NCBI GenBank assembly: GCA_002633005.1 | Contig: NMRA01000060.1 | Location: 890,315 to 954,314 of the forward strand | Reading direction: 5' to 3' | DNA length: 64,000 nt | Source: Phoronis australis | Lineage: Eukaryota > Animalia > Phoronida | Shown here: positions 5,078-55,951 of the stretch, in pieces | Layout of the letters: every line of letters starts with the position of its first letter | How positions within the stretch are numbered: position 1 is the first letter of the stretch | Program-made: the position numbers and the translations under genes | The notes under the pieces: model-generated | Told to the model about the DNA's origin: nothing | Databases searched by the model: none | What the model saw: the letters and a program-made list of their open reading frames with translations, nothing else

Positions 5078-8000
5078 CTTTAACAGTGAAAAACCTTGGT
5101 CTGACCAGGTCTAAAGTTAAACCTGGTTTAAGGTCTTACTACAGGTCTAGAACAAGTTTAAATTGTAGTTAAACCAGATTTTACTAGACCACTGGTCTAA
5201 AAGTTAAACTACCTTTATGAAATGCAGATTATCCTTAATCCTGGTCTAAGTCCACTTTAAACCAAGTTTAACTTTAAACAACCTTCATGAAACCGGCTGT
5301 TATTGTTCAGATCGGGATTTGGCATCCTATGGGAAATGCAGTCAGTTGGTAACGAGTCTGTATTTTTGAGTGAGTTTAAACAACGGATTTAGATATAGAC
5401 GTGCAGCAGTGGATGCAGGAATTGGTTAGGTTTTAGTAAAATAGGTACTTACGAATTATATAAACAACACTTTATGATGGAAACCTACGTCACAAGTGTA
5501 AAAAGCAGAAAGTATTTGAAGGTTGTGGCAAAATGTGGATGTTCAAACCACAAGCTACAAGTAGAAAGCGGAAGACACGTGAAAACGCCTAGAGAGAGTG
5601 AACTATGTACTGTTTGTGATCTCCATGTTGTAGAAGATGGATATCATTTTTGGTATAATGTCCGCTTTACGACGACCTAAGAACAACTTTCAAAATATTT
5701 AATAATTTGAAGTGTGAATTTACTCAGAAATGTAATATTTTAAATTTAGCTCAGTATTTGTTGGCTGGTGGTAGAAGAAGAGACCATGTAAATACGATTT
5801 ACTTTGTATTATTAAACTATGTATTTGAGTCGGAGGCCTTTGTACTAGAAAGATATATCAAAAAAGTTCCCTTTTTGATAACGCTCATACAATTCCTAAT
5901 AGCATTTTCGAGAATCATAGCGCACAGAACATACAGCAGCGTGTCATTTGAATCCGACCAGGCGTTTCTGAAATATAACGTTCCCAAGTTATCCCAATTT
6001 TGATATCTTTCGAGGGTCTTGCATAATTTTATCGTAATGCTTTTATGCTGACTGTGAACACCGCAGCAGGTTTGCTTGCGTTTCGCCTTTAAAATTGCAA
6101 TTTCTGGTCCCGAGTTTAGCGAAAAAGATGACTAACTTTCAAATTAGACGCAGTCTCTTGTATGTTATACGTTCTTACTGAGTTTAACAACGTTTCTTAA
6201 ATCATGCAATTTCAACTATGATATTTGATAATTTCACCAATATAAACAAAATAAAAGAATTAACTGGTCACTTGATTCGAAGCCAACTGAAGTAGCCAAT
6301 CATAGCCGGCTCAAGCAAGCAGTATGAATAAGATGATCTATTCCCAAAAGGAAGCAAACCATCAAAATGATTTCAAATGGATTTTCAGTTACAGTGTACA
6401 TTGATGATAAATCGCAGAACACGAAACCAATCACATTATGATGTAATCTACATGTACCATGGAGCGGATGCTCGAAGAAAAAGATTTCTACAAATTTAAA
6501 GAATGGAATTGAAAAAGGGAACCCATTTGGATTGAAGAAGCCTTAGAGTTTAGAAATAGTGCCCCTTCCGTAAAAAGTAAACCGCGTGAGCTGTGGACCT
6601 TTTTTCACCCTTTCAGATGGAAGTTTGTCGGAAATGGCACCCTGTTGGAGAGACAAAAAATCACCCTTCTAATCAACACAACTTGTAAACTTTTTCTTGG
6701 GAGTAACCTTTCGTAAAGGGTTTGTTTTTATAGTCCAAAATAAAGCTACATGACGCTAACGTAGGCAATTGCTTAACTCAGTCGCATAGACCAAACACCA
6801 CACAATGACACCAGCAACCACAGTATTTAAACTGGTTTGTTGTGCCTGAAACTTGCGACCATTCTTGACGTTTCAGGCAATGTATTGTACCCCTTCCTCA
6901 TAACTGAGTTGGGAGAGAATTCAAGTCCCAATGACCTTTCCTGAAAGTAGAAAAGTCATGCAAAGGAATAATGCAACCCTTTCATTATTCAGGGAGAGCG
7001 GGCAGCATACGAATTTAAAAAATGAAGAAAATTGCTTTTTGGGTACGAACACTGAAGTCTCGTGGCTCAAAATAAAACAATTCTTACTGTTGTCATGTCC
7101 TTTCAAAAGGTCTTACCAACTGGGTTTGTATTTCCTATTATGAAAGGAATAACAAAACTTGAGTATTTTTTGTTTCTGGACCCCTGGTAATCCAACTGAT
7201 TTAAAAAGCACTGTCTTAATCACGAACTGCTGTACTGTTACAGTGTTAGCCAGTTTATCAATTTAGGAATAAGAGCACGTAACACTTTAATGTTTTCATG
7301 CGTTTACGAACGGCACCAGTTACAATAAAATGCAATAACTATGCCTAGATTAAAGGAGTGCGCTGTAACATGTAACAACAAAACGATTGGAAATTCCACA
7401 GTTATGTTATTAAAGAAAATAAATGCTTTGGTTAAGACTTGCTCTGAAAATTCTTGGATTTTGCAGGTAACATCTCTGTCTGAGTAATTTCACGTGTTCT
7501 CTTGAGCAGGGCAGCCAGTCTCAAAGTACACCCCTTTCCGGTGTTGGTGTAACTTCCTGTTTTGTCGTCAACGGAAAGCTGGATATACAGATTTTCAATT
7601 AATGAAACAATAGTAAGACACTCAAAAGTATCTAAAAACATATAAAAACACAGCGATTGTTAAAAAAATTGACCAGAGCTACCATGTTGAACTCGGAGCA
7701 TGTGCAGTGGCGTTTACATAGAAATTCCTGGGTTGCGTTCCGTCAACGCGAAACCATCACGAAAACTAAAGATCACTCAAGACTTCACGAGATTGCATGC
7801 ATTGCAAGCAAAGGTTCCTTGACGCGAGTGCGCCTACGGAACTCAAACCGAGTGCTACGGCGTTGACATATGCAGCGCCAACCTCACCGCACGAGAGAGC
7901 CGCGAGGTAATGTATGACTGTTGTTCAGGATCTCGTTTTACATGTTGTGACAAGTAATACCCGAGTAGAGATGACAGTGCGTTCGTATACTATAGAACCC

Positions 8001-10939
8001 GAGCCTCCAGGTTCGCAACAATGACATAACTGTCGTAATTTCTAGTCATGTTGCTGTAATTTTGACAACAGGCGTTACAGTATTTGAAATATGGAACAGC
8101 AATTCTTTCGTTTTTCACAATTGGATGACACTGTTTTATCACTTGTGTATGATAAGGTCTTTTACATGGTTATTCTAAAGCGTCGCCTACGTGCTAAAAT
8201 TACCGTACATGTATGATAAACTGCCAACATAAGGTATCAGTGTCTTACCACCCAATTTGATTTTAGATAAGTCAGTGATAGCAGCGTCCCTTGCCATGAT
8301 AGCAGACCATATGGCAGAATCCATGTGGTCACGCATGTCGATACAGTGTGTTAAGGTAACTGAAAGTGACCTTTAACAAGAAATTGTTGAACTGAAACTT
8401 TATTCTGAAGTAGTAGTAAATATCCCAATATGTAAAGTTACATGATTTGCGCTGACACGAAGTAGTTGATTTCTTACATAACACCAGATCTTCGTCCATA
8501 TATGCTAGCTATTCTTAAGCTTAACCTACACAACATCGTTACTCACACTGCGTGCACCATTGTTGAAGTTGAATAAACCCTTGCATTTTTAGTGCCAGAT
8601 AAAACTTACTAGGGGCCCATATACTAGTACAAAAAGTGTGGCGAACCTGAGCGTCAAAATTGCCGGTCGCCCATGTGTTCTAGCTATCCTTTCCCACAAT
8701 TTCCTCCCCTCCCAGTCACCACAATATCCGCAACCCTTTCGATCGTTACGATGAACTACTGCTCCCACCTATCGAAGAAACCATTGAGATATCCCAATGA
8801 CGGTTAGATGGACTCCTCTTTTGTGCGAGGCTCCACGTTGTAGGATATCTGGCTAAATGGTTAATGGCCATTGGTCTTTTACGGTGAAATTTTCATATAT
8901 CCGATTAGGGTTACCTGGATTTATTTTCTCTATTCCCATGACCTATTGAGCTCTAAAGAGGGTCGATGGCCGACATTCTGAAAAAGTAAGTCAAGAATAA
9001 ACTACCAATAATGTTATGTTACCTATTTTGTTACTGAAATGACACACCTATCCGGACTAAGGTATAATTTCGACCACGCGTGGTGGACCAATTTTCAAAC
9101 ATCCGTACTATACGACTGTGCTCCATTACAGTCGTAGGTCTGCTCTGATCCACAATAGTATAGCCAAACGCATTAGCGATTTCTTTATCACTACTAGACA
9201 CTGCTGAAGGATGCCTTGACGTCATCGTGACTGAGACATCTGCCAAAGCGCAGTATGTAGAGTATGGGACGCCCAGGGGAGAGACAATTTCTGTCGCGTG
9301 AACAGGTGTGCTGATTCTTTCTACGACGTCAAGTGATATTTTTAGAAGACTTCAGTTACACCTCCTTTCACTAAAGTGACTAGAGAAAGGGTTTAATCTC
9401 CAAATCGAACTGAAAATTATGTGTTGCCTTTTTGATCCTGATGAATACGAGTACTTGAAAATCCATGGATTCAAGCTTCAAACTTGAGTTCAGACTCTAT
9501 CATGTAGTTTTGAAATACCAAATATGGTTAGAAAGTTGTCCAGGTAAACCATTCTGTTGCCGAGCGTAACGTAATACACGCTTACCACATACTCTGAGAG
9601 TATGGAATGGGAAATGTTCAATGCAGTTTGTAGCTCGATTTCGAGTCGATTCACAGTGATTGCACCATGGACCCTAACCTTGACTGTCGGCTTGTACTAT
9701 TCAGTATATTAAATGTCCATAATTGATGACTTAATGAAAGTATGTCCACAGTCGGAAGCAAATATTCCCAGCGAAATATGCAGTCTTCATTTCTGTCGAG
9801 GTGAAGGTCATCAGCCCCGGTCTGTTTACAAGGGGTGGTATCACTGGCGCGGCAGCGCCTCTACCATGGTACGGTATATTTATTAAAGCTATAAACAAAC
9901 ACAATACTGTTCTCAAATATGGCCATTGTGAGAAAGGAAATATTGGGAACTTATCTAATCAAAGGATATTGGATATATTGAAATTGAAATATAGTTACAA
10001 TTAAACATGATACAGCAAATATAGAACAACATAGTGACAATCATACAGTTAAACATTAACCAGACACCTAGATTTAAAGATGAATACTTGGATTCATAAG
10101 ATTTCAGCTACAATCCTTTAAGCACCAGTGCAGGAGCAGAAAACAACAAACTCGCGGCACAAATCCCCAGACTTGATCCCCTTAGTGAGGGACACACAGA
10201 TGCTCCAGAGACAAGGTGACTAAACTCCAGTCCGGGGGACCAGAGTCCTCATCCGGATTTTAAATCCGTTGGTGATGTTTGGAGTTAATGGGCACGACTC
10301 TGGGAATTTGTTTTAAGCAAAATATCATAGCTGGAATTTAAAGGCAACGACATGGAATTGTTTTCACCCCCTTGTATATGGAACCAACCTATATCTGTCA
10401 GAGACGTTCATCTCGACCTACATTATTGTCGTGTACATGTGACTACGTCACCACCCACGAGAGGGCACGAGAGTCAACATATGTTTTACAGAATTAGTTT
10501 AGCGCTGATAATGATTCCCTATAAAAGGAAAACAGAATCCGATCATATCATCTTCCAAGGATCACTAGGAAAACGGTAAGCACACTTTTATTTTTTCTGA
10601 CTTCACCAGCAATCAAATTAACGGTAGATTTTTGCGAGCCGTATTGGGGACCATTTAGACTTTTCAGTTGTCAGCACGTTTGAATTTCATGATGAATTTG
10701 AATTTGCTTGAACAATTTTAGTAAGTATTTCAAAAAAAATCGTAAATTTATGGCCATGTTCCCAATTAGGTGGAATCCACAGAAGCTAGTATAGATTTTA
10801 ATGTCACTTAAAGGAATTGGAATGTACTCACTGCACGTTGTTACATTTAGAGCGGCTTTCAACCAACGTTCCGTCAAAGAAACTAATTTTTGCTTAAGCT
10901 ATTTCGTAAAAACTTATATGAGAAAAAGTTTTGGGCATA

Positions 10940-11136
10940 AAAAATGGTTGGGCGATCTTTATGGCTTGAGATCTTGCACAATGCAAAAAGAAACACGCGA
11001 TGACAAGCTAACATGTAGAGACTGGTCGCTAAAACAACGAGTTTTCAATTTCCTTGAAGACATTGGATTACCTATATATTGGTTAAATAACAATTTTAAA
11101 CCATTTTCAGAATACCAAGAGTTTAAGCTAATATGA
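10940..11136 (+). mobile_element. Possible small LINE ORF2 C-terminal remnant
   Basis: DWSLKQRVFNFLEDIGLPIYWLNN resembles the W..V..LL...G...W segment seen in the LINE at 2.9-5.8 kb. Confidence 0.3.
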
Positions 11137-11471
11137 GTTTGAGTGACGGAATGCCATTACCCAAAAAGTCCACGTGGCGTCAGAAATCTAATAATGTTCC
11201 TAGTTAAAAAGTAGTACTGAGGCGAATGCCAACAAACACCCTAAGGCCATGTAAATTTTGTTTTCCAAACTGGCAAAAAGATCGGGAACGGATTGAAACA
11301 GCTCATTTTTGGGAAGATGTAAACACTAGTTAGTTGATTTATAAACCATGACTTTAAGGAGGCAGGCTGTAAGTGACTGAATGAAGCATGCGAATTACTT
11401 TGATGTATTCTTTGTCTAACAACTGGACAAAAGCATAGTAATGCAATAATTATTATTACTGTTACAGAATC

Positions 11472-14400
11472 ATGCGGCTGTTATTATTTATCGCCTTTTT
11501 GGCTATTGCAAGAGCACAGGTCTTCGAGACGAGTAAGTAGCGTAGCTTCTATGAAAAGTAAACACAGTGCATTGTAATAAAGAGAACATCTCCACTATAA
11601 CATCATATATTTAAGTTTCACTAGAGCACTTTTGGGTTTCTTTGGAATCGACTCTTCTATCAAATTGTAAATGACTTGCATAGGAAAGATATTACGCCTA
11701 AGCTACAATAATCTCATAAACGGACTATTCAACACAGCGTTAACAATCTTCCGTAGAATGAAACTTAAGTCTTGGTCTCTGAAATAAACTATTTTACCTG
11801 TCTATTTCAGACATCGAGGATGAAGTGTATGAGGTAAGTATTGGCTTAGATCCAAGATAAATGCATAATGAGTTTGAAGCTTCTTCAGGAATGGACAAGC
11901 TCAATCACAGCGACACGTAGTGTTTTACCATGTATGAAATTCTACATGTAAATTACATGTCATTTTTAAAATTTTCAAGATGAATCATATACATAGTCAA
12001 GTGAATTTTGAATGTCAAGACTAATAGTTAATAGTTCAGGTCTGTAAGCTATCTATAAGTTGTTCGTGTAATCTCATAGGAGTTGTTAAACCGTCTCACA
12101 TAAAATCGTTATGCGATACCAATTCTTGTTTCTTGCCGTTAGGATGGTGTCCTGACCAAACTGGAAGCCAAGTTCCAAGAAACAGCCGACAAACTGCTTC
12201 AGGCTATCGAAAAAGGAAAATCGGTAAGAACAGTAATCACAATTATACTACTTCGGCTGGACCAACAGCTGAATACTAGGTCCTGGATTCTACACCAACA
12301 CGTAGTTCAATTTGAGCATGATTAATGTCTGATAGTACGTTTTAGATTATTTTATTAAGCGAAAAATCACTCATAATCCCATTTTAGAAACAATGACGTA
12401 TGCCGGAGTCTATCGAAATCTCGAAAAGTGTATCTTTTACGGATATTTTTACAAACTGTCTGCATGCACTATCTGCAGTGCACTTAACAAACTGTTGCAG
12501 ACCGTGCCAGCACTCTTTGCTGAACTTAAACAACTCTACAAAGACTTGCTTGAGATTGACGGAAACGCCAGAGTCTTCGCCAAACAAGTGGTCGCACAAC
12601 TGAAGGAACAGTTGGCCAAGCTGAAGAATAACCACGTGACCCCAGCCGTGAAACTGGTGAAGGATTTCTTGAACAAGGTTTTCAACAGAGGTCAGTGGAT
12701 TTAATTTGTATCTGAACAACACTTGTAGTAAAAACACACAACAATTGAGTCAAATACTGGGATTTGTTTACTGAAGTTACCGACGTTGCGTCCTTCTCAC
12801 GGACTTCAGCATGGGTAGTGATGCTATCATCGTTCTTGCCCATAAGTGGCGTTTTAACCAAAGGAACTCACCACAAAAGCACCGAGATCCTCTCTCTGAG
12901 TAAACGAGTTGGAATAAGGTTCCATCTGTCACACTTATCTGATAGTGTCCGGACCTCGGTGCCGCGTCTTCTACTTAAACGCCACCTATTGGCCACAACT
13001 ATAATAACACCACTAGCTGCTTCGACAAAATCTTTAACCGAAGTTCGTCAATATTGTTTTCCCATGGGAGTGACTTTGGGCATCTTAAATGTACCTTCTT
13101 TAATTTTGCTATAATTTTTACCATAATCTTAACGTTTTCTGGTTTTATTGGGAGAAAATTCACAACTGAGTGTCAAATGTACTTCACAGTGATCGCGACA
13201 GCTTACATTGAAACAAACATGTCCTCTTTATGGCATTTTCCAACACCATCTAATGTTAGTTTCCCCACAAATTTCCATTTTGCCATTCATATATTATTCT
13301 GGGCTTATGTCTAACATTATTGTCATTGACTTGCTTTCACCGCACGTGATTCACGTCCTTCAGCATTTTTCACCAATGACCAGTCGTGGTGACGCCCGGA
13401 AAAATGTTGTGTTCTATTCTAAAATGAATATTTAAGTTAGTTTTTATAAAGTTTGATGCAGTTTATGTAGTCGATCTCAAGATTATTTTATGAGTAATTT
13501 GATCATTTATTGATATTTTGATATATTTCAATGTGTTATTTATTATAACAAAATGTGCCATTGTGGCATTTTAACACTATTCTAACAAAATACTATATTT
13601 CTAATATTTTTTGTGGTAAGTGATGTTTACTGCTACTCGACTTTTCATGCTACCCAAACGTATATTCTGCTTATATTTTCGCAGGTACCAGGGATCTTGA
13701 GTATCAAGTAAGTTTTAACTATGAATTACACAGCAAAATAAAGGTATAGTCTGAACTGATAGCGACGAGTAACATGGCGACCAAAATACTCATTGAAATT
13801 ACTATCACAACATTTATCTTAATTTTCCAAAACAACTACTGCTCGCCAATCTTCCTTAAACATTAAATAATGGGAGTAAGTTTAACAAGTCTATGCACAG
13901 TCTGAAAGTTTGGCATTTATTATTTGGGCATGTTAAATGACGACGGAGCCGAAAGACAGCACAACTGGATCAAAAAGAACCTCTTCTTGACACAGCGAGG
14001 GAAGATTGTTGAGATTAATAACGATTTCGCTCCTACGGAAAATTCTAATTCCTCAATGGCAATTGACAGACCCAGATTAATTTTGTATAAAATCATTGAG
14101 GAGCATTAAAGCGGCCACGCATCAAGATCTGTTAAAGATCCCCGAGGTGTTTATGTAATCTCATATGTGTTGTTAAATCACGAGAGAATGTATAGGGATG
14201 CCAATTATTGTTTCTTGCTGTTAGGATGATGTCCTGACCAAACTGGAAGCCAAGTTCCAAGAAACAGCAGACAAACTGCTTAAGGCCATCGAAAAAGGAA
14301 AATCGGTAAGAACAGTAATCAAAATTATACGACTGCGGCTGAACCGACCTCTGAATACTAGGTCCCGAATTCTACATCAGAAAGTGGAGACATTGGGACT

Positions 14401-17400
14401 TAAATGTAGTGTCATGAGTGCCCGCGTCATTTGCTCGAGGACGCGTGTTTGAGTCCCCTTGGGCCACACTGATAGACCTTTAGTCAAGTTTCTAACTCCT
14501 CACCTAGGTTTAAACAATATGCTAATAAAGCTCAACAATAGGTCCAGTAGATCAGTGCAATGGCCCTACGTATGCGGCCTGCACACGTCTTGTACAACGT
14601 GTACCATGTACCAGACGACTTGCAATAACTCATAACGTTTTGGACTATTTTATAAAACGAAAGTTCATTAATTATTCCATGTTATAAACAATTAAGTATG
14701 CTGTAGACGCTTGCAGTGTTTTACAAATTGTCTGCATGTAACACGAAATCCACAATGCATTGTACATTCTGTCGTAGACCGTGCCAGCTCTCTTTGCTGA
14801 ACTTAGACAACTCTACAAAGACTTACTTGAGATCGACGGAAACGCCAGAGTCTTCGCCAAACAAGTGGTCGCTCAACTGAAGGAACACTTGGCCAAGCTG
14901 AAGAATGACCACGTGACCCCAGCCGTGAAGCTGGTGAAGGAATTCTTGAACAAGGTTTTGAACAGAGGTCAGTGGATTTAGTTTGTATCTGAACAATGCT
15001 TGTAGCACAAACACAGAACAATTGAGTCAAATACTGGAATTTGCTTACTTAAGTTAGCAACGTTGCGTTCGCCCCTCACGGACTTCAGCTTGGGTAGTGA
15101 TGCTATCATCGTTCTGGCCAATAGCAGCGTTTTAACCAAAGGAAATCAACTCAAATACACCGAGAGCCTCTCTCTCTGAATAAACGAGGTGGATTAAGGT
15201 TCCATCTGTCACACTTATGGGATAGTGTCCGGACCTCGATGCCGCGTCGTCTACTTAAACGCTATTTATTGGCCAGAACTATAACAACACCACTAGCTGC
15301 TTCGACAAAATCTTTATGACAGATTCGTCAATATTGCTTTCCCATAGCATGGAAGTGATTTTGAGCATCATAAATGTGCCCTCTTCAATTTTGCTATAAT
15401 TTTTACCATAATCTTAACGTTTTCTGGTTTTATTGGGAGAAAATGCACAAATGAGTGTAAAATGTATTTCACAGTGATCGCGACAGCTTACATTGAAACA
15501 AACATGTCCTCTTTATGGCATTTTCCAACACCATCTAATGTTGGTTCCCCCCAAATTCTCATTTTGCCATTGATATATTATTCTGGGGTTATGTCTAACA
15601 TTATTGTCATTGCCTTGCTTTCACCGCACGTGCTTCACGTCCTTCAGCATTCTTCACCAATGACCAAACGTGGTGACGCCCGGAACAATGTTGTGTTCTA
15701 TTCTAAAACGAATATTTAAGTTAGTTTTTATAGAGTTTTATGTAGTTTATGTAGTCGATGTAAAGATTATTTTATGAGTAATTTGATCATTTATTGCTAT
15801 TTTGATATATTTTAATGTGTTATTTACTTTAACAAAATGTGCCATTGTGGCATTTTAACACTATTCTAACAAAATGCTATGTTTCTAATAATTTTTTGTG
15901 GTAAGTGATGTTTACTTATACTCGACTTTTCATGCTACCCGAACGTATATTCTGTTTATATTTTCGCAGGTACCAGGGATCTTGAATATGAAGTAAGTTT
16001 TAACTATGAATTACACAGCAAAATAAAGGTATAGTCTGAAGTGATAGCGACGAGTAACATGGCGACCAAAATACTCATTTAAATTATTATCACAAATTTA
16101 TCTTAATTTTCCAAAACAACTACTGCTCGCCAATCTTCCTTAAGCCTTAAATGATGGGAGTAAGTTTAGCAAGTTTTTGCACAGTCTGAAAGTTTGGCAT
16201 TTATTATTTGGGCATGTTAAATGACGGCGGAGCCGAAAGACAGCACAACTGGATCAAAAAGAACCCCTTTTTGACACAGCGAGGGAAAATTTTTGAGATT
16301 AATAACGATTTTGCTTCTATTGGAAATTCTAATTCCTCAATGGCAATTGATAGAAGCAGATTTGTATAAAATCGTTGATGAGCATTAAAGCGGCTACGCA
16401 TCAAGATCTGTTAAAGATAATCGAGGTGTTTATGTACCAATTATTGTTTCTTGCTGTTAGGATGGTGTCCTGACCAAACTGGAAGCCAAGTTCCAAGAAA
16501 CAGCGGACAAACTGCTTAAGGCCATCGAAAAGGGAAAATCGGTAAGAACAGTAATCAAAATTATACGACTGCGGCTGAACCGACCTCTGAATACTAGGTC
16601 CCGAATTCTACATCAGAAAGTGGAGACATTGGGACATAAATGTAGGGTGATGGGTGGCCGCGTCATTTGCTCTAGGACGTGTGTTTGAGTCCCAGTGGGC
16701 CACACTGATAGACACTTTAGTCAAGTTTCTAGCTCCTCACCTCGGTTTAAACAATATGTTAATAAAGCTCAACAATGGATCCAGGTGATCAGTGCAATGG
16801 CCCCACGTATGCGGCCTGCACACTTCTGGTACAACGTGTACCATGTACCAGACGACCTGCAATAACTCAGAACGTTTTGGACTATTTTATAAAACGGAAG
16901 TTCATTAATCATTCCATGTTATAAACAGTTAAGTATGCTGTAGACCCTTGCCGCGTTTTACAAATTGTCTGCATGTAACACGCAATCCACAATGCACTGT
17001 ACATACTGTTGTAGACCGTGCCAGCTCTCTTTGCTGAACTTAGACAACTCTACAAAGACTTGCTTGAGATCGACGGAAACGCCAGAGTCTTCGCCAAACA
17101 AGTGGTCGCTCAACTGAAGGAACACTTGGCCAAGCTGAAAAAAGAACATGTGACTCCAGCGGTGAAACTGGTGAAGGACTTCTTGAACAGGGTTCTCAAC
17201 AGAGGTCAGTGGATTTAGTTTGTATCTGAACAATGTTTGTAGTACTGCAAACTTTTATGAGGATTTGCATGGGCCTGTAGCCTACACGAATAACATCGAG
17301 AGACAATGACCTTGAGCTAGCCTCAGAATAAAAAGGCGAACATGCGTTCTCTGTGGCATTGAATCAAATGCACGAAAACCACGGTGTTCTCTTTTAAATT

Positions 17401-20400
17401 ATAAGTTTTTATTGTTCTATTGTGACGTACAATGGTAACTCTTACAGGTACCCGACAAACCGACGCCATCGCTACACTTGAGCAGAAGTTGAAGGAAACA
17501 AGCGATAAGCTGGTTAAAGCCATCACTGAGGGGAAACAGGTAAGGACCACGGTTGATTACAGGATAATGTCTTGAAATGTCTGAAACCATATTCGAGCTT
17601 AGGCAGTGTAAGCATTACTGATGGACAGATCCAACCCTGACGAATAAGAATTTGTCGACACGAGCTTCGTTGGAAGCTCATGAACACGGGTAAATTTGAA
17701 ATTTCAACAAAACATGACTTAAACAGTTTGACTGAGTTCATAACTCGTTATCCACACAGGGAGTGTTGAAACTGTTTGCTGAATTCCGTCAATTGTACAA
17801 AGATCTCACCGCCATCGACGGAAAAGCTAGAGTGTTCGCTAAAGACCTCGCTGAAAAAGTGAAAGTTGCCATTCAGAAAGTTAAAGATGAACACCTCAGC
17901 CCCGCATTGACGCTCATCAAAAACTTCTTCGACAAAATCTTTAACAGAGGTTCGTCAATATTGTTTTCCAATAAAGTGGGTGTGACTTTTGGCATCATAA
18001 ATGTTGCCCTCTTTATTTTAGTGTAAGGTTTGCCGTCATTTTAATTTTCACTGGTTTGTATTGGTTGAAAATGNNNNNNNNNNNNNNNNNNNNNNNNNNN
18101 NNNNNNNNNNNNNNNNNNNNNNNNNNNNNNNNNNNNNNNNNNNNNNNNNNNNNNNNNNNNNNNNNNNNNNNNNNNNNNNNNNNNNNNNNNNNNNNNNNNN
18201 NNNNNNNNNNNNNNNNNNNNNNNNNNNNNNNNNNNNNNNNNNNNNNNNNNNNNNNNNNNNNNNNNNNNNNNNNNNNNNNNNNNNNNNNNNNNNNNNNNNN
18301 NNNNNNNNNNNNNNNNNNNNNNNNNNNNNNNNNNNNNNNNNNNNNNNNNNNNNNNNNNNNNNNNNNNNNNNNNNNNNNNNNNNNNNNNNNNNNNNNNNNN
18401 NNNNNNNNNNNNNNNNNNNNNNNNNNNNNNNNNNNNNNNNNNNNNNNNNNNNNNNNNNNNNNNNNNNNNNNNNNNNNNNNNNNNNNNNNNNNNNNNNNNN
18501 NNNNNNNNNNNNNNNNNNNNNNNNNNNNNNNNNNNNNNNNNNNNNNNNNNNNNNNNNNNNNNNNNNNNNNNNNNNNNNNNNNAGAACAATCCTTCCATTG
18601 GGCTGCGAAAGTTTATGAAAACATTGATAGGGAGTTTTTTATTACTTGAAAGCAGGGTTCAGTCAATATCACTAATGACTTATTGCTTATGTTTACTTTA
18701 GGGCATTTCTAAACTTCTGGTTGAGTTCAGAAAGCTATACCAACAACTGAAGGAAATTGGCGGGAATGCAAAGGCGTTCGCTAAGGTTGTCGCCGACAAA
18801 TTAAAGCAAGCTATTGACAAAGTGAAAACTGAACACATCAGCCCTGCTGTGAAACTTGTGAGGGAATTCTTGAAGAAAGTTCTTAATAGAGGTATTGTAA
18901 AGGACTACGATGACCCATCTATACAACCGTTCATGTTTCCACTTACGACTTTTTGTTGAACTGAGGATCAAACCGCAATTAAAACTTTCTAGAGAATTGA
19001 ACATTAGTTCACGTAAATGACTTGTGAACAATTTCAGGTAGCTCTTTAGCAGCCTGTCGTGTCAGTTACACACATTACGCCAACCAAACAAAGGCTGGGT
19101 ATTGATATGGATAATACTGGCGACAAAAAAAATTAACTAACCTTATACTACTATTGCAGCTCTTAAGTTTTACAGTTTTTAAACTTGTTACTTTTGCACT
19201 TATGTTTGGGGAAAATACCGAGGTATTTTATCACAAAATTTCGATTTCAGGTACCAGAGATGTCGTTTCTGATCTTGAGAAGAAATTGGTCGAAGCAACA
19301 ACGAAACTGACAACAGCCATCGAAACCGGAAAAGGGGTACTCCGAATTAAATCATTCTAAAAACAATAATTATACTTCAATGTAGCGGTGACAAGCATGT
19401 AGCGACATAAGAGATTTCTTTAGATGGCGATAGAGTTTTCGTGAACGCCGTTCAGCGTTACCTTCAGTTCACCTGTGTTGGGTTTAGGCAGGAAGGTTTC
19501 AAGTCATGTCTGAATATTCCTTCTATGATATTCTACTGATTCCCTAAAAATGAAGTTAACATACTGAAATTCTTGTTATTGACTAATCATCTCAGTCAGA
19601 AATTCCACTCAACCATATGTGATCAAATACAACACATAGTGTGTACAACTAGACTGCATGAGTAAATTGACGTCCATTTCTTCAAAGAAAGTTTCCTTAT
19701 TGAAAACTTGTATCAATGCACGAAAAACTAATTGATCTACACCAGGAATTAAAGCATGCCTGAAACTAAGGTTAGGAAATTAACAAAATTCCAGAATGTT
19801 CTGAAAGCGTTTGCTGAGTTCCGTCAGCTTTACAAAGACCTCCTCGAGATCGACGCTGGTGCCAAGGTTTTCGCCAAAACATTAACGCAGAAGATCAAAG
19901 AAGCCATTGAGAAAGCTAAGAATGACCACATTTCACCAGCCGTCGCTGCGGTCAAAAGGTTCATCGATGCTGTTTTTGGTAGAGGTGAGAAACATTGATT
20001 TTTAGTAAGAGATGACTAAAGTTCACAGTCAGAAAAGATATCCACATTGATAAGTTTGTCACCGACAAACTAATCCAATTTTTAAAGACTTTTACCCTTC
20101 TATACTTTCGGTGCAAATGCTCTTAAAATAAGCTTAATGCTAGTGAAGTGCTTTAGACCCAAAATTATGCACTTTTTCATAAAAATATAAAAATTGGTGT
20201 ACTTCCTAATTTAGGTTTATCAAAATCAGCCTAGGTACCCATCACAATCACCGTGGTAACTATCCGCCACCTTGTATATGAAAAAGCTGATTCATCAATT
20301 TTAACATGTTATATTACATTTTGTAACAAAAATCGTAACTTTTGCATCCAGTCATAATGAAGATATCGCACAAAAATTTTATGCAAAAAATCAACAAAGA

Positions 20401-23400
20401 AAGGTGGCCGCTCTGTGGTATTGCATTTCATTATGGTTGCCAGATTTTCATAAGCATACTCGCTCTTGCTTATTCAAAAACGGTAATACTGCCACAACTT
20501 TTTATCAATACCCTGCCCCCATTTATCTGAAAAGCTGAAAAAGAGGTGGAATGTAATTCCGGCAATCACATCAGCTGGGATCGAGTATTATCCCAAGTTC
20601 CTTCCGATTGCTCCAAGATCGACTGCATAGTCCATCACGTGGTGATTATTCAAATGGATAAAATTGACTAAGAAAAACTTCATCATTTTTTTTATTAAAG
20701 TTGCTGTCTCAGGATCATTTTTGAACAATTCTGAGGTGCTAAGGTACTTTATCACGAACTTTCGATTGCAGGCACCAGAGACGTCATTTCAGATCTGGAG
20801 AAGAAATTGGTCGAAGCAACAACAAAACTGACAACTGCCATCGAAACCGGCAAAGGGGTACTCCGAATTAATTCATTTTAAATATAATAGGCATTTCTCA
20901 AACTCTCGGAATCATGCATGCAATGCCATAAGCTACCCGTTAAATCTTGATACAGACTGTATAGTGTTGGTGAAGAACGTTAAGCGTCACCATCAATTCA
21001 CCTGTGATGAATGTAGGCAAGAATATTGCGACCCGTTTCGTTGTGGTTAGCGCGACCGTCTTGCGTAAGAAGTTTGAGTGAAGCAATAGTCGCTTTCGTG
21101 TTTTCACTCCGCAAGTTTTGTAAGCCGGATGTTTTGGATTTATTTTTGATGAAACATATTAGTATAAATTTAGGCTCAAATGTCTTTGATCAAATACAGC
21201 ACCTGCTCTGTTCAAAGTTGTACAACTAAACTGCGTGGAAAATTGATGCATCTTTTTCTAGAGAGTTCCTGCGGGTAGATAGTATGAAATACAGCATGTC
21301 AAACTATGAAACGTGACTGCATGTCAAGCTGCTTGTATTCCACCAGAAATATTGTTAAAGCCTGAAACTATAGTTAAGAAATTTACAACCTTCCAGAGCG
21401 TTCTGAAAGCGTTTGCTGAGTTCCGTCAGCTTTACAAAGACCTCCTTGAGATCGACGCTGGTGCCAAGGTTTTTGCCAAAACATTAGCGCAGAAGGTCAA
21501 AGAAGCCATTGAAAATGCTAAGAATGACCACATTACACCTGCCATCGCTGCAGTCAAAAGGTTCATCGATGTTGTTTTTGGGAGAGGTGAGACCTACTGA
21601 TTTTTAGTAAGATATAACTAACGTTCACAGTCAGTAAAGATATCCACCTTGTTAAGTTTGTCAGCGACAAACTTAACAAATCTTTTAAAGGTTTTTACCC
21701 TGCTATATGTTCGGTGCAATTGATCTTAAAATAAGCTTAATGTCAGAAAGTGCTTTAGACCCAAAGTTGAGCACTTTTAATAAAGATATGAAAATTGGTG
21801 TACTTCATGATTTAGGCTCATCAAAATCAGTCTAGACATCCCTCACAATCACCGTGGTAACCATCCGCCATCTTGGTTATGAAATATCTGATTTATCAAC
21901 TTTAGCCTTTTATATTACATTTTGTAATAAAAATCATAACTGTCATATCGAGTCAAAATGAAGATATGGCACAAAGATTTTATACAAAAAATCAACAAAG
22001 AAAGGTGGTCGCACAGGCGTATTGCATTTCAATATAGTTGCCAGATTCTCATAAGCATACTCGCTCTTGCTTATTAAAAAGGATAATACTGCCACAATTT
22101 TTAACAATACCCTGCCCCCATGTATCTGACAAGCTGAAAAAGAGGTGGAATGTGATTCAGCCTATCACATCAGCTGGGTTCGAGTATTATCCCGAATTTC
22201 TTCCGTTTGCTCCAAGATTGACAGCATAGTACACCACGTGGTGATTATTCAAATGCATAAAACTGACTAAGAAAAACGTCACCATTTTTTATAAAAATTG
22301 CTGTTTAGGATTATTTTTGAACACTTCTGAGGTACTAAGATGCTTTATCACAAACTTTCGATTGCAGGCACCAGAGACGTCATTTCTGATCTGGAGAAGA
22401 AATTGGTCGAAGCAACAACAAAACTGACAACCGCCATCGAAACCGGCAAAGGGGTACTCCGAATTAATTCATTTTAAATATAATAGGCATTTCCCAATAC
22501 CTCGGAATCATGTATGGAATGACATATGCTATTCCGTAATTGCTGATAGAGTGTTGGTGAACAACGTTAAGCGTCACCTTCAATTCATCTGTGATGGATG
22601 TAGACAGGGATATTGCAAACTGTTTCGTCGTAGTTTTCGCAACCGTCTTGCGTAAGAAATTTTAGTGAAGCAAAAGTCGCTTTCGTGTTTTCACTCCTCA
22701 AGTTCTGTTCTATACCGGATGTTTTGGATTTATTTTTGATGGAACATATCAGTAGAAATTTAGACTCAAATGTCTTTGATCAAATGCAGCACTTGCTCTG
22801 TGCAAAGTTGTACAACTAGACTGCGTGGGATATTAATGCACCTTTTTCTAAAGAGTTCCTGCGGTTAGATATTATGAAATACAGCATGTCAAACTATGAA
22901 ACGTGACTGCATGTCAAGCTCTTTGTATTCCACCAGAAATAATGTCTAAGCCTGAAATTACCGTTAAGAAATTTACAATATTCCAGAGCGTTCTGAAAGC
23001 GTTTGCCGAGTTCCGTCAGCTTTACAAAGACCTCCTTGAGATCGACGCTGGTGCCAAGGTTTTCGCCAAAACATTAGCTCAGAAAGTCAAAGAATCCATT
23101 GAAAATGCTAAGAATAACCACATTACACCTGCCGTCGCTGCAGTCAAAAGGTTCATCGATGCCGTCTTTCGCAGAGGTGAGTTTCATTGCTTTGAGTAAG
23201 AAATGTCAAACCTTCACATTGAGCAAGATATCTGCCTTTGTGTTTATTTTTTTTCTGCCGCTTACTCATTAAATCTGCTATAGCCATAATTCATATATTC
23301 ATTAAAATATCTAGAAAATATCCTAGGTCTTTCAACGATTGTACCGCGCACGTGTGTGACACGCTGAGCTAACAATATGTCCTACAATTTTCTTGTGTCG

Positions 23401-24607
23401 AGGTGTAATGCTCAATGCTTCAATGCCTCTACCCGTACCGACAAAGCACATGACATTGTAAGTAAGTCAAGAACATTTTCTTGGGTTAGATACTCAAATA
23501 AGATTTAGCGTGGTTAACGGAAATCATGCTGCCTTCAATTTATGTAAAAATAAAGAAATGCAAACATTTAAATGATGCAAATTGTTAACTTATTGGACCG
23601 TTCAACGAAATTGACATAACTCGTTTCTCTTTTCAGGAAGCAGAGAGGTTGACTTCGAGGAAGATGATGTAAGTTGAAACACGTTTGTATCTCGTTGCAA
23701 ATGAATTTTTGTGCCGGCGCTTGTCAATAGTTAAGACTTTCGTTATTAGAGAAGAATGGTGCCCTTATTTGCCGAAATATTCGAGCGCGTATAAAAACTT
23801 ACTAAGTGAGATATTGTAATCTTTTAACTATAACAGGGAACTCATAAAAAGGCCGTCTTTGTTACATGTAAATTGTCTTTTAAGGTGGTTGCTCTGCGCC
23901 GACGTGGTTTGATCAAGGATTTCTTCGGCAAACTGTTCGATACTGCTAAGGATATCGTCAACAAGCTCGTAACTGGTCTCCATGGCAAATTCAAGGAACT
24001 TGGGCAATTCCTTGGTCAACTGTTGAAGGACCACGTGGAGAAGGCGAAACCTCACATGGAAAACATCAAGCAACTGGCAAAGGAGGTGAGCTCTTTGACA
24101 AATTTAGCTCCTGTTAGTTTAACTTTTTTTACTGTCCCAAGTCATGTACGAGTGATTATCGGCGGAAACGCTGCCTTACGCAACGGGAATAGTGGACAGC
24201 GCTTTATTCTCATGAAGCAACTGTCCGCTTTGTCGTCAAGTTGTGGCTAGCGTAAGTGACCTTTTTCCAGCGACATCTTACGGTATATTGTGAAACGTGC
24301 TAGGTGCCAGCTTTGATTAATTCGTCTCGGTTGATTTCGTTTTAAATAAACCCAATTTACAACACTGTTTCTAATAACAACGGCAATTTCAGAAGCATTT
24401 GTGTTATTTCATCTGTACGGCGATAAAGTAACGTCTTTGTTCTAGTTTTTGGGACACGCCAAGGAAGCCACGTTACAGACTCTGGAGGAAGCCAAAGAAT
24501 TCTTCGGCAATTACAAAAACGATCTCGGCGATCTGTGGAAAAAATTGTTGGAAACGATCAACACCGCTGAGAAGACTTTGAAGGCAACCACACCGACTCC
24601 TGCTTAA
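11472..24607 (+). CDS. Secreted tandem-repeat amphipathic-helix polyprotein (~905-910 aa), unknown family
   Basis: In-frame GT-AG exons: 11472-11532 (signal MRLLLFIAFLAIARA-QVFET), 11811-11833, 12143-12223, 12501-12690, 13685-13707, 14225-14305, 14778-14967, 15970-15992, 16461-16541, 17015-17204, 17448-17539, 17760-17949, [exon(s) in N gap], 18702-18891, 19251-19336, 19795-19984, 20772-20857, 21397-21586, 22368-22453, 22987-23176, 23637-23668, 23885-24085, 24446-24607 (TAA). No stops, all phases compatible apart from the gap, AATAAA at 24653. Confidence 0.92.
12100..17245 (+). repeat. Intragenic tandem duplication, repeat units 1-3 (about 2.1-2.3 kb period, introns included)
   Basis: Exons and introns are highly similar, e.g. 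12690-14150 vs 14967-16430 and 14225-15000 vs 16461-17240. Confidence 0.92.
18074..18582. other. Assembly gap (N) inside the polyprotein gene
   Basis: Run of about 509 N. Confidence 0.99.
19220..23235 (+). repeat. Intragenic tandem duplication, repeat units 6-8 (about 1.5-1.6 kb period)
   Basis: 86-nt + 190-nt exon pairs and their introns are repeated three times. Confidence 0.92.
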
Positions 24608-24652
24608 TCAATTAAAATATGATGTTAGATGTACCTAAATACCTTCAAAGTA

Positions 24653-24658
24653 AATAAA
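24653..24658 (+). terminator. Polyadenylation signal of the polyprotein gene
   Basis: AATAAA about 45 nt after the stop codon. Confidence 0.65.
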
Positions 24659-27600
24659 GTTATACACATGTGAAAGTCATCTTTTCATTAACAGCCTCTA
24701 ATAGATTTATGAGGTAACATTCACCATTTTGAGAATTGGGATGGTTTGTTATGACAATCTCTAACGAGAACAAAGCGATCGTGCTAGATTGCGCAAAATA
24801 GCGCGTCATTGAACTCGTATTTACATTCAGCCCACCGTAGCGTATGTTATATTATTGATATCTGGTGGGAGTTATCTTATACTATACCATATGCTACTAC
24901 ATCCGCTAGATATTTTCAGTAGAAACATATTTACAATTACCTTGTAATCTCGGGCCTCAAAACCAATGCCATGCGAGCAGTTTTGCTGCTTCCGTTACTC
25001 GACTTAAAATGTTCCTTCACTGAACTATTTTTTAAGCGAGCTTAAGAAATGTCATCGATTTCCGCAACAGTTGTTGATGAGCCAACTCGCTGTCGAGCTG
25101 GTCTCGCCACCTGGTGACTAAGCTTGGAACCTTACTGGCGTTCAACAACAAAATAGACGCCACTGAATTGATTTGTAAACGAGACTGGATGATGAGGGAC
25201 ATTTCGTCGGTTTCTGTTCCATTGGTGGTGCACTTACGGAACGCAGCACTGATCAGATTTCAAGACTCAAATGTAGCTTATCGTGAGCGTCGCAGTAAAC
25301 ATTGGAACACTGTAAAGTTAGCAAAAAAATCTTTGTATTATGTAATCGAGATAACTGTTGCCAGGTGAACACGCCACCTATGTTTTAAAAAAGAGAAGGC
25401 ACGTGCGGCCGTGGGCACCTGTTTTCGAAGACAAGTTGTCCAGACAGTGTAATAGAAGGAATTTCAGATGAAGGTGGCACCGGAAGGATGAGTGTGCAAT
25501 TCGCAACACGAACCTTAGACTGTTTCAGCAAACTCAAGTGCAAAAGCGTGCAGGGATGAAATCATTCGAGTTACGACATGTACTCACGGAAAATGTCAGA
25601 CGTGACTATGTTCTGTGTGGACATTTTTTGACGAAGTACCGCTATGTGATACCACAAGCAAAGCCATCTAGTGGAACACCTCGGATGTTTTCGTACATGT
25701 AGCCTCAAATTTCCCCTCGTGCATCGGTCGTACGACTGAAGTTAGCATATGCTAAGATAACATTCACCTACAAGAGGAAATTTGAGGCTAAGGAAATACG
25801 CAGGTGTTAGATAGAAGCGTAAAAAGTGACTTCAAAAGGTTTGACTGGTGAGCATCCTGCGTTGGAACGGCCACGTGATCTGCTGAGGTGCTTGATTTTT
25901 AATACGTACTTTGTACAATAAAAACGACGAAAAAGAAAACACCGGAAATTCTTATCTACACACCCACACACACAATTTTACTCTTGTTGATACTAATATA
26001 AGTTGTTACAGCAATATTTATAGATATTCCAACTATAAGTGATATGAATAAAACGTACCAGCTTCTGGTTTATATGATGATGAAATTGCCACCTTTGTGA
26101 GACCGTGGTAATATTTTTATATTTGCAAAAAATAGCCATAACTGCTTGACATCCCTTGAAATGTTTTAATCAACCGTAGCATTTATATGAAATTGATCGC
26201 AAATCTGCATTCTTGAAATGTTGCTTCATAGCTTGAGAGTTCGTAAACCCGTGTTCATGTACACATAAATAACAATCAAGAAACAATAACAGTATAAATT
26301 CATCGTGTTCGTTCATCGTCTAAGTGGCGCTTAATGAAATGTCTTGATTTTAATGACATATTTCCCAGTCTTCGCAGGTGGTCAAGACAAAAATAACCTC
26401 CAAACTTCGGGAAAGATTCCCTATGTAATGTAATCAAGCAACAAAGTCTTTTGACGAAATAACACTCATTTTACTTTTAAACTTGGTCTACTTAATCATT
26501 TACGCTGGCGTAACGTCAACCCGAAAAAAGCAATTTATAATAATTAAGTACTATACTATGTGCCATCACCCGCTAGGCGGAGCCTGGCGCGGGAGGGTAC
26601 TAAAGAGATAAATACAAATATAGGTGATTTATAAACGGTTACCTTCTTTTGAAAGAAATCTATTCAAGCGTGACTAAATGTAGTAATGGACTCTGTTCCA
26701 GACCTCTCAGGTAAGACAATAACACGGATCGAAGTTTTTTCGAGAGATTTCTCGCCCTTTGACGGTTAGTACAAACCCACCTATGCAACCACAACATTAG
26801 TTTATGTAATTCCAATTTTCGCCAGAACCAAAGCCAGAGTTTCCAATTCTTAGGTGATTGAGGGACAGAGATTCTTTTCCAGTGGTCCGGTGTATAAGCT
26901 TCAATCACGATGTACCTGTATATCTGAGCATATTTTGTAACCTATCCAGCGTTCATTCTTGAACATCCGGAGTTCGATCGCCTCACGGGGACAGAACGAA
27001 CTTGTGCAAAATTCATAGCAAATCCTTGGACACTATAGTATAGTCTCAATTTCATCAATCGAATGTTTCAAACGTGAGTGGATAAGTGCACCTGAGTGGT
27101 CTCTTATTTAAGCAGTTGACAGCGGTAACCAAGGCAGTGTTTCTTATCTATCCATGGTACCTCAGTGCACCATGGGTACCTCCAAATACTTCGCACATGG
27201 AGCCTGCAGACTCGTCACAGTCGCTGCTATGGTGTAGGTCTACGTCCCTAGCAGCTGAGGTCGACTTGTAGCTTTAGGCAAGAACTCACATATGTCAACT
27301 GCATTGCATTTTTTGTATTTGATTACTCTCGTTAAATTCTTGGCTTTTCACTGGTAAAAACATTTATCTGAGCTTGGTTAAAGAGGGGGGGACGTCAAAC
27401 ATCCTGTATTCAATTGTAGTTTTGTCATAGTTATCATATCAATGCCACTTTTTACATCACATGTCTAATAGAAATAAAACGACTTACTTGTTTTAAGTTA
27501 AGACAAGGATACTTTGACGAAACTGGTTAGTTTAATATTTGTTTTCGAGAGATATAGTGTTCGTTTTTCATACACCTTACATGATTATCTCAAAATGCAA

Positions 27601-27659: not shown

Positions 27660-28452
27660 ATTCCTTTACTAAATGTTTAATTGAACGGAGGACGTAGAAG
27701 ATTTTCTCGATCAATAGTGACTTAAAATTTCATACACAAAACATTTCATTTTAATTTGCCATAAATATTTTTAAATATTTATTGTAAGCTTGGATGCTGT
27801 AAATGCAGTTTCGAAAAGCATCATCTTTAACTGTAGACGATTTCGAATTTCGCGAATTTGGGGAAAGAACAGCTGAGTGTTTCACATTCGCTTACGAGGT
27901 ACAGATTTACGTTTGTTAACAACCAAATTTATCCTTTATTTTAAGATTACATTGTCCTGATTCACCCAACCGTGATATTTACTCATACATGTATATGTTT
28001 TTAAATAATTGAATTGGTTGATCAGCTTAGGTTTAAATCCCAGGTGGCTTATCTGNATTCCTTTACTAAATGTTTAATTGAACGGAGGACGTAGAAGATT
28101 TTCTCGATCAATAGTGACTTAAAATTTCATACACAAAACATTTCATTTTAATTTACCGTAAATATTTTTAAATATTTATTGTAAGCTTGGATGCTGTAAA
28201 TGCAGTTTCGAAAAGCATCATCTTTAACTGTAGACGATTTCGAATTTCGCGAATTTGGGGAAAGAACAGCTGAGTGTTTCACATTCGCTTACGAGGTACA
28301 GATTTACGTTTGTTAACAACCAAATTTATCCTTTATTTTAAGATTACATTGTCCTGATTCACCCAACCGTGATATTTACTCATACATGTATATGTTTTTA
28401 AATAATTGAATTGGTTGATCAGCTTAGGTTTAAATCCCAGGTGGCTTATCTG
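27660..28452. repeat. 396-bp direct duplication around a single N (probable unmerged contig overlap)
   Basis: 27660-28055 and 28057-28452 are identical apart from about 2 substitutions. N at 28056. Confidence 0.9.
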
Positions 28453-37800: not shown

Positions 37801-39222
37801 GAAGATGTCAAAATATCCTGAACATTAATCAACAATCTTTGCACTACATCGCAAAGGAAAAACATGTGTTCAGTACTATGTACTAGATTACAATAGGGAC
37901 ATTTATCTGAATTAACAATCTTCATCTTATATAACAAAGAGTTAGTATACACTCTGTTATGTAACAACATATACTTAAAAGATTTAATGCATGGTTCGAG
38001 GGGAAGTGTAAAAGGCATAGAGTAAATTTTTCGGATATCTTGTTTGGAGTAATGCTGCAACAATTTTTCATAATTGTCTGGTTTTTTGCAATACTTTTGT
38101 ATCAAAATCCTCTTGATTTTTTCTTTTGGAATTTTGTTATAATCTAAGCAAATTTTATTGTTGCAGCCAACCAATCGCTGATGACCTTGATCAATTTTTC
38201 TAGAGAAAACAATACATATTGAATTAAAACTCAGAATTTGAGAATTTACCAATTTATATTTTGCCAGTCAAAGTAAGTTAACAATTAAAGCTAGCTAGGA
38301 TTTACGGCATCGTCTCCTACATAGGCTTCCGTGTTGGTGGGATTGTCTCAAATCGCCGTTGTATCTGCTTCGTTAGTCTTCGCGATTTCATAAAACTAGG
38401 AGTTCTGTTGACCAGTTCTTTAATACATGTATGGAAAACGAATATCAGCATGTCGTCCGTGGCATTCAATATCTTTCACCATTTATGTTCCTCGGGGGGA
38501 GCGATATGTTCTCTTCTTCATCAAAGCCAGAAAATATGATGAATACATGTACGCAGGTACTAACACTTCCCTTAAGCAAAAAAACGCACTTTAATAGAGC
38601 GTTTTTACCTTTGTGGCCATTACAATCCAAGACGTTCATCAACAAAAAAGAGAAAAAAACGAGCAGAACACACAAAATTGGTAATTTTCAAAACAAAACC
38701 ATAACTCGCATGCGACTACTAGGCACCAACTGACACCGCACTCAGAATGTCAATCAGCCCATATTCCAAATATTTGGTGGACAGTGCATAAATCCCCATG
38801 AATTCTTTTTTTTTGCTTGTCTGAATTGTCTATCCGACAGGGATATATAAGAAAAATAAGTCAAAAGAACAATAAATTGCATTTGTTATCAAAAAATTAA
38901 CATATCCAACAAATACCATTCTTATCCACCACATAGTGAGTGAACATCAAGATGCGAACCAGCACTGACAAATTCCACTGAAATTGGAGGGGGATTTGAT
39001 TGTGGCTCAAAAAATTGAGCGCCACCTTTTCAGTACTTAACGTATATTCATATTTGGAGCATATACCCGACTTACACGTGATTTATTGTTGTGTTCTTTA
39101 CACATTCCTAGGTATCACTACTACGGTGTCGGCGTGAAAGAATCCTCACCATATTACGACGTCATCTATTCAAGTAAAGGAGTTCAGAAGTTGGTACAAT
39201 AAATTTAATGGACACTTGATTT

Positions 39223-55816: not shown

Positions 55817-55951
55817 CAGGGTTAGAGTTAGGGATAGGGTTAGGGTTAGGTTAGGCGTAGGCTTAGGGTTAGGGTTAGGGTTAGGGTTAGGCTTAGGGTT
55901 AGGCTTAGGGTTAGGGTTAGGGTTAGGGTTAGGGTTAGGGTTAGGGTTAGG
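55817..55951 (+). repeat. Telomeric (TTAGGG)n tract with proximal variant repeats
   Basis: TTAGAG, ATAGGG and TTAGGC variants grade into perfect TTAGGG, ending at the N gap. Confidence 0.97.

Follow-up and report, generated by a model that had tools for sequence, protein, structure and literature searches.

A Phoronis australis gene with eight tandem units and R-x-x-R linkers: a candidate secreted polyprotein for lipid surfaces

A stretch of 64,000 nucleotides from the phoronid Phoronis australis (contig NMRA01000060.1, positions 890,315 to 954,314, forward strand; hereafter the window, whose own numbering is used throughout) carries a single spliced gene in which a signal-peptide-like start is followed by eight homologous units and a tail with a distinct C-terminal domain (C-domain), each unit leading into the next part through the motif R-G-T-R or R-G-S-R. 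Short reads and RNA contigs support this gene, which is sample-specific and very highly expressed. Judging from sequence comparisons, it belongs to an uncharacterised precursor family and reached its present size by tandem exon duplication: the design is known, the family is undescribed. We favour, with confidence and doubt in about equal parts, the explanation that its product is a secreted polyprotein, which a convertase would cut into some nine proteins of 10-13 kDa that bind lipid surfaces.

Each of the 22 visible coding exons is bounded by AG and GT, their phases agree, and they join into a single open frame (script test of boundaries, 10500-26000), with two or three exons per unit and introns of 216-1002 nucleotides. 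Translation on either side of an assembly gap of 509 Ns gives uninterrupted stretches of 408 and 470 residues (878 residues read), and we estimate the full product at ~910 residues once the gap exon is added. These 878 residues contain no Cys and one Trp, which lies in the C-domain, the units themselves being free of both. Cut behind each R-G-[TS]-R, the chain falls into the signal (called by eye) plus unit 1 (121 amino acids), units 2 and 3 (98 each), unit 4 (94, with a linker of its own), unit 5, whose first exon lies in the gap, units 6-8 (92 each) and a tail of 128, made of an acidic spacer, R-R-R and the 113-residue C-domain.

Four of eight RNA runs from the same organism were mapped, three as raw reads (X6, X7 and X8) and one, from a second study, as contigs (X5). 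The gene collects 111,534 of 12.75 million reads in X6 (0.87%) and 109,862 of 11.31 million in X7 (0.97%), nearly all of them in the orientation that a plus-strand mRNA would give; X8 has 48 of 11.05 million, 98% of which run on unlike the gene, which is therefore off in that sample. Splicing in the X5 contigs is the same as in X6 and X7, and a single contig runs from the end of unit 3 to the end of unit 4. Among the joints listed (15 of 158), 14 of the 22 coding junctions are seen directly and another two through loose ends beside the gap; the other six are not in this listing and lie in near-identical repeats, where reads went to a sister repeat copy. Unit 2, for example, has reads over its two larger exons, and those of its linker were placed on the sister copy at 15970. 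Depth per exonic base is even, at 5300-5600 in units 1-3, 4 and 6-8, ~6300 in unit 5 and 5500-5800 in the tail, so, as far as short reads can tell, each part is present about once in the transcript pool, as expected neither of separate genes nor of mutually exclusive exons. The joints 12690>15970 and 19984>22368 could be taken for exon skipping; we attribute them to sister-copy assignment because the summed depth over units 1-3 and 6-8 equals that of the single-copy parts, bearing in mind that minor skipping may occur. Upstream, an eight-letter loose end before 11467 (838 and 921 reads) has a single match in the window, followed by GT, at the end of a 5' non-coding exon; downstream, a poly(A) loose end follows 24675 in X5, and molecules end at 24670 in X6 and X7.

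The seven visible junctions read NRGTR (four), GRGTR (two) and RRGSR (one), and no other R-x-x-R occurs in the 878 residues. At the gap, RNA loose ends (4865 and 4371 reads after 17950; 4587 and 4507 before 18700) show an exon opening with G-T-R-D-L-E and closing, as usual, with G-K-Q; the eighth junction is therefore R-G-T-R as well, and R-x-x-R stands at 8/8 junctions. The units form four lineages (units 1-3, unit 4, unit 5 and units 6-8), with long-exon identities of 87-94% within and 44-59% between them; as they are near-identical within, the eight linkers are worth about four to five independent observations. Synonymous sites are saturated between lineages (pS, the proportion of synonymous differences, 0.68-0.81), and the P1 Arg is kept despite synonymous codon change (AGG, CGA, AGA). 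Among recent unit copies the ratio of nonsynonymous to synonymous change (dN/dS) is 0.18-0.27, which is purifying selection, and the unit copies give no sign of diversifying selection. According to PMC8999023, the least that furin needs for efficient cutting is R-x-x-R.

An earlier note on this DNA, made by eye from the letters, had already described the signal-like N-terminus, the eight homologous Cys-free units and the wording of the visible junctions, all of which the exon boundaries and RNA splicing bear out. Its splice model holds for the coding exons, and it missed the 5' non-coding exon. The strong divergence that it saw in the rest of the unit is real between lineages but not within them, and 16 of the 63 columns of the long exon do not vary, each unit having one invariant Pro and one invariant His. 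Separate genes or mutually exclusive exons, which it had raised as an objection to itself, are not seen at a depth of 5300-6300 per exonic base throughout.

Relatives of this gene exist, all uncharacterised. A long-exon profile run with HMMER over 1.84 billion representatives gave two matches, P0001 (289 amino acids, E 1e-10) and P0002, the latter dropped as a repetitive junk open reading frame matched over 20 residues; among longer proteins, a search by word index with the alignment of the long exons gave 0 of 7994 candidates, which is weak evidence. Searching with P0001 (five matches among 5622 candidates, of lengths 158-506 only) brought in P0006 (67%) as well as three proteins of Argonauta hians, at E 2e-26 to 6e-11; the Argonauta records (P0007-P0011) are named uncharacterized LOC115221216 / LOC115221193. 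P0001 and P0006, both in records of transcript size, are laid out as signal, acidic pro-piece, one unit, acidic spacer, R-R and C-domain, and they score 76 and 67 bits with the unit profile; the single unit of P0001, P0003, P0004 and P0006 is 34-46% identical to the window units. The window C-domain is identical at 70/110 and 75/109 positions to those of P0001 and P0006 (64-69%) and at 39/101, 43/104 and 40/99 to those of the Argonauta proteins (39-41%), with alignment scores of 185-380 against at most 56 in shuffles (200 each). To go by these similarities, P0001, P0003, P0004, P0006 and Argonauta P0007-P0011 are true homologs. The Argonauta middle region shows no detectable homology to the unit (hhalign probability 2.8%); since Argonauta shares the C-domain only, behind a dibasic site, the C-domain is the core of the family. 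Homology between unit and C-domain was considered and rejected (hhalign 10%, against 7-11% for reversed controls). RR or KR stands directly before the C-domain in 5/5 relatives examined, and Arg precedes a D-L-E start, which also opens window units 2, 3 and 5, in 3 of 4 one-unit sequences, so that processing looks ancestral.

In one partial Argonauta hians record (P0007, 393 amino acids) Q-K-R precedes each of two apparently identical, tandem C-domains, which reflect either a C-domain expansion of its own or an assembly or annotation artefact. Eukaryote coverage of the searched databases is patchy, and the range of the family so far is that of these records. In metagenomes, the one match among 595 stretches (L001) was dropped as a bacterial-type gene of unrelated layout, and another scan matched 0 of 231; an Atlas search reached 0.75 (viral) and 0.82 (rotifer hypothetical) at most, below 0.9 in either case and leads only. 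The literature searched, which excluded supplements that could hold the names, gave no description of the protein family or of LOC115221216/LOC115221193, and five short motifs of the family did not occur in it.

How the eight units came about can be followed in part. Two recent duplications of intron-containing blocks are visible (12337-15008 against 14635-17245, 89%; 19758-21650 against 21360-23238, 88%), and no further paralogs were found within the 64-kb window. We infer that the gene arose by tandem duplication of unit exons with their introns from a one-unit precursor, which would have comprised signal peptide, acidic pro-piece, unit, acidic spacer, dibasic site and C-domain; duplication, in joining the end of one unit to the start of the next, apparently gave rise to the furin-type linker. 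The eight-unit form is probably the derived expansion, judging from two one-unit clusters. The introns after units 1 and 2 also hold decayed exon ends of unit-4 type (13017-13159 and 15297-15445), which match 17924-18073, the end of the unit-4 long exon with the following intron, at 77-79%; by this similarity they are traces of lost units.

Several features of the units point to amphipathic helices that might sit on lipid. Hydrophobic periodicity peaks at 99 degrees (3.64 residues, between 3.6 and 3.67); with regard to the Pro-punctuated 11/22-residue repeats of apolipoproteins, this peak and the one invariant Pro per unit are what the window shows. AlphaFold models the long exon alone as three helices (predicted local distance difference test, pLDDT, 64) and P0001 as helical throughout, four of the helices covering the unit (pLDDT 44). 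When the hydrophobic face is defined blind to charge and p is obtained by permutation, 15 helices from the four unit lineages carry 31 of 52 Lys/Arg at 60-120 degrees and 25 of 32 Asp/Glu at 120-180 (p 0.004), and the C-domains of the window and three relatives have the same layout (p 0.0006-0.008). Lys/Arg at the boundary between polar and nonpolar faces and Asp/Glu in the middle of the polar face are the marks of apolipoprotein class A helices, as set out in PMC8146922. Pfam matches to ApoC-I, Apolipoprotein A1/A4/E, ApoLp-III, Perilipin and Gp-FAR-1 recur below threshold.

In the explanation that we favour, the chain would enter the secretory pathway, where a furin-type convertase would cut after each R-G-T/S-R, with a cut also after R-R-R. 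The products would be eight mildly basic, four-helix amphipathic units of 10-12 kDa and one C-domain of 12.7 kDa, and the format would multiply unit output 8:1 over the C-domain. Once released, the pieces may open on lipid surfaces as exchangeable apolipoproteins do and act as carriers, or as emulsifiers or surfactants, in body fluid or a secretion. We propose more tentatively, with doubt slightly prevailing, that the relatives together form an undescribed invertebrate family (probably lophotrochozoan) of convertase-cut proteins resembling exchangeable apolipoproteins, in which the polyprotein was invented independently here, exon-block duplication creating the furin sites. The earlier note had left three lipid or membrane options side by side for about nine products. 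Class A helices favour the apolipoprotein-like branch; the count stands as eight units plus a C-domain, but the view of nine like products does not, the ninth piece being a different domain, the conserved core of the family, which that note had missed.

A number of observations weigh against this explanation. The structure models are weak (pLDDT 64 and 44); the class A test was run on related sequences, without a control set of ordinary helical bundles; the apolipoprotein matches sit among many unrelated coiled-coil matches in Pfam, the best for PF01442, PF04691 and PF07464 reaching 19.5 of 90, 18.4 of 28.3 and 18.2 of 36.3 bits. As to cleavage, P2 is Thr or Ser at 8/8 junctions, a minimal R-x-x-R only, and R-G-T-R lacks the basic P2 of K/R-x-K/R-R, the cleavage motif that PMC3079579 gives where it deals with nematode polyproteins. 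The R-G half sits on the splice donor (exons end AGA G, the Gly codon being split) and would thus be conserved in part by the splice consensus, and about a quarter of the unit columns are invariant regardless, so the linkers are not the sole conserved positions. One-unit relatives contain no R-x-x-R, P0001 has Cys where Arg would precede the unit, and unit 1 of the window has no upstream Arg.

If the precursor is cut, its products could instead be membrane-active effectors of defence or predation, antimicrobial or cytolytic, in mucus, skin or a gland, which we regard as unlikely. The order of signal peptide, acidic spacer, dibasic site and Gly-starting amphipathic helix does recall antimicrobial and venom precursors, yet the charges are laid out as in class A and not as a cationic patch centred on the polar face. 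Similarly, the units are basic (pI, the isoelectric point, 9.2-9.6; net +3 to +5), but for 92-113 residues this is a low charge: complete pieces have net 0 to +5, the opening 24 residues of the C-domains 0 to +1. On/off expression at 0.9% of reads would fit a gland, and two Argonauta C-domains match HblB weakly (E 0.002, 17 bits against a cut-off of 750); no toxin or antimicrobial peptide family reached threshold in the Pfam and NCBIfam scans, NCBIfam giving nothing near its cut-off, and the purifying selection without diversification speaks against such a role.

The chain might also stay mostly uncut, an amphipathic protein of ~100 kDa like beads on a string, with R-G-T-R as a turn at the exon junction and only the C-domain removed; it would then serve as a large apolipoprotein-like belt or as a component of a film, gel or adhesive. 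The position of R-G astride the splice site, the Thr/Ser at P2 and the K-G-T or R-G-D that one-unit relatives have after their unit, at the same place and without R-x-x-R, all suit this possibility. We nevertheless hold it to be quite improbable: both Arg are kept at 8/8 junctions across synonymously saturated lineages while Arg makes up only 5% of long-exon residues, no R-x-x-R falls inside any unit, and the residues at P1' and P2' (D/Q/E, then L/T/V) suit furin. Least probable is that the pieces are closed helical bundles, either carriers of small ligands or metals (pigment, fatty acid, haem or metal ion) or storage proteins, for although the C-domain has three His among its 28 invariant columns (five sequences) and the unit one, the unit region of the relatives best matches the designed, binary-patterned four-helix bundles S-824/S836 (E 0.0006-0.002) and nematode polyprotein units work as small-ligand carriers, a four-helix unit of 92-98 residues leaves little cavity next to the seven-helix ABA-1 unit, no metal-binding family matched and the low-confidence models give no pocket.

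Fold and sequence comparisons place the products in no known family. With these weak models Foldseek gave no match at E 0.001, and the best VIA fold match (Z 8.4) is generic for helical models, the models being too weak to call the fold new; the ABA-1 fold has no row among the fold matches listed, for queries that are a partial unit at pLDDT 64 and P0001 at 44. Sequence searches of the PDB gave designed bundles and chance matches only. The earlier note had recognised no characterised family, and we find none; it had missed the uncharacterised relatives, including those with a single unit.

In the passages of PMC3079579 that describe them, the nematode polyprotein allergens (NPA/ABA-1) are very abundant, secreted-type tandem helical precursors with a Trp and two Cys absolutely conserved in each unit, while tandemly repetitive polyproteins at large are rare (filaggrins and nematode allergens being best known), have regularly spaced proteinase sites and very small or no introns in their repeats, and follow a format for which a satisfactory explanation is lacking. 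The window gene is like the nematode precursors in its large secreted-type product, its tandem, similar helical units, its regular basic sites and its abundance; it is unlike them in that (i), its units have neither Trp nor Cys; (ii), they measure ~95 amino acids and have, in low-confidence models, four helices against a seven-helix unit; (iii), they are joined by R-G-T-R and not by K/R-x-K/R-R; (iv), introns of 216-1002 nucleotides interrupt every unit, which sets the gene apart from repetitive polyproteins too; (v), a distinct C-domain follows. On the absence of Trp and Cys, the other motif and the introns we rejected membership of the nematode family, in agreement with the earlier note, which had doubted direct homology. 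R-x-x-R at 8/8 junctions between similar units and the even depth of short reads are what the gene has in common with tandemly repetitive polyproteins.

The likeness to exchangeable apolipoproteins (PF01442, PF04691, PF07464) lies in Cys-free sequences, all-helical models and a class A charge layout, against which all Pfam matches stay below gathering thresholds. We know of no exchangeable apolipoprotein that is made as a multi-unit, convertase-cut precursor. Prosaposin and saposin-like proteins, the insect Bla g 1 repeats and the multi-peptide precursors of antimicrobial or spider-venom peptides are all cut into helical products that bind lipids or membranes; saposin-like proteins have six conserved Cys per unit where the window units have none, and Pfam gave no match to saposin, Bla g 1 or peptide-precursor families. 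Precursors of linear cationic antimicrobial or cytolytic peptides have an acidic spacer and a dibasic site before a short, strongly cationic mature peptide; the window C-domain likewise follows an acidic spacer and a basic site (dibasic in 5/5 relatives), but the predicted products, at 92-113 residues and net 0 to +5, are longer and less cationic. From P0001, P0003, P0004 and P0006 the window gene differs in having eight units, not one, and in being alone in having R-x-x-R.

Should the favoured explanation be right, the gene would be a further case of a tandemly repetitive polyprotein, unrelated to the known ones and with introns in every repeat, and its one-unit relatives would show the starting state and allow direct tests of how the polyprotein format arose and what advantage it brings. 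The family reaches octopods, and the records and literature searched describe no function for it; the gene yields a product at ~0.9% of reads in two samples, which, should it bind lipid surfaces, would be a candidate for the role of small exchangeable apolipoprotein or biosurfactant in these animals.

Table 1. Parts of the gene in window coordinates, with the evidence for each.
Feature	Position	Strand	Evidence and remarks
TATA-like box	10520..10525	+	upstream of 5' non-coding exon; motif found, putative function
5' non-coding exon, 3' end	10567..10575	+	donor GT at 10576; RNA loose end
Coding exon 1: ATG and 15 signal-peptide-like residues	11472..11532 (exon begins 11468)	+	sequence; RNA joint to 11811
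Unit 1 leader exon, acidic, 23 nucleotides, no Arg	11811..11833	+	splice model, RNA
Unit 1 short exon, predicted helix 1	12143..12223	+	splice model, RNA
Unit 1 long exon, predicted helices 2-4, R-G at end	12501..12690	+	splice model, RNA, structure model
Unit 2	13685..14967 (linker exon 13685-13707, exons 14225-14305, 14778-14967)	+	splice model
Unit 3	15970..17204 (linker exon 15970-15992, exons 16461-16541, 17015-17204)	+	splice model, RNA
Unit 4	17448..17949 (exons 17448-17539, 17760-17949)	+	splice model, RNA
Assembly gap (N run) holding first exon(s) of unit 5	18074..18582	+	loose ends, >4000 reads per side in X6 and X7
Unit 5 long exon	18702..18891	+	splice model, RNA
Unit 6	19251..19984 (exons 19251-19336, 19795-19984)	+	splice model, RNA
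Unit 7	20772..21586 (exons 20772-20857, 21397-21586)	+	splice model, RNA
Unit 8	22368..23176 (exons 22368-22453, 22987-23176)	+	splice model, RNA
Linker exon: end of R-G-S-R site and acidic spacer	23637..23668	+	splice model, RNA
C-terminal domain, 113 amino acids behind tribasic R-R-R	23885..24607 (exons 23885-24085, 24446-24607; stop 24605-24607)	+	RNA, sequence comparison
Polyadenylation signal and poly(A) site	24653..24675	+	AATAAA at 24653; RNA ends

Elsewhere in the window, a single-exon open reading frame of 192 amino acids on the minus strand (53508-54083) has a signal-like start and several Cys, with no notable Pfam match and no homologs among 59 candidates; we take its look to be that of a TIMP/NTR-like protein, which Pfam did not confirm. 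An exon of a gene with an RFX DNA-binding domain lies at 36600-36737 on the plus strand (PF02257, E 3e-12), and retroelement fragments with zf-RVT (LINE-type) and rve integrase matches lie at 37536-38267 and 44574-45044 on the minus strand. A TTAGGG telomere-type array, a gap of 842 Ns and then ~720 copies of a 10-base satellite occupy 55818-55951 and 56794-63999. The TTAGGG repeats, the RFX exon and the GT-AG introns are all as expected of an animal. Two head-to-tail copies of 397 bases, 99% alike, at 27660-28452 are a recent duplication or an assembly artefact, and a 31-base minisatellite of ~21 copies stands at 48601-49238.

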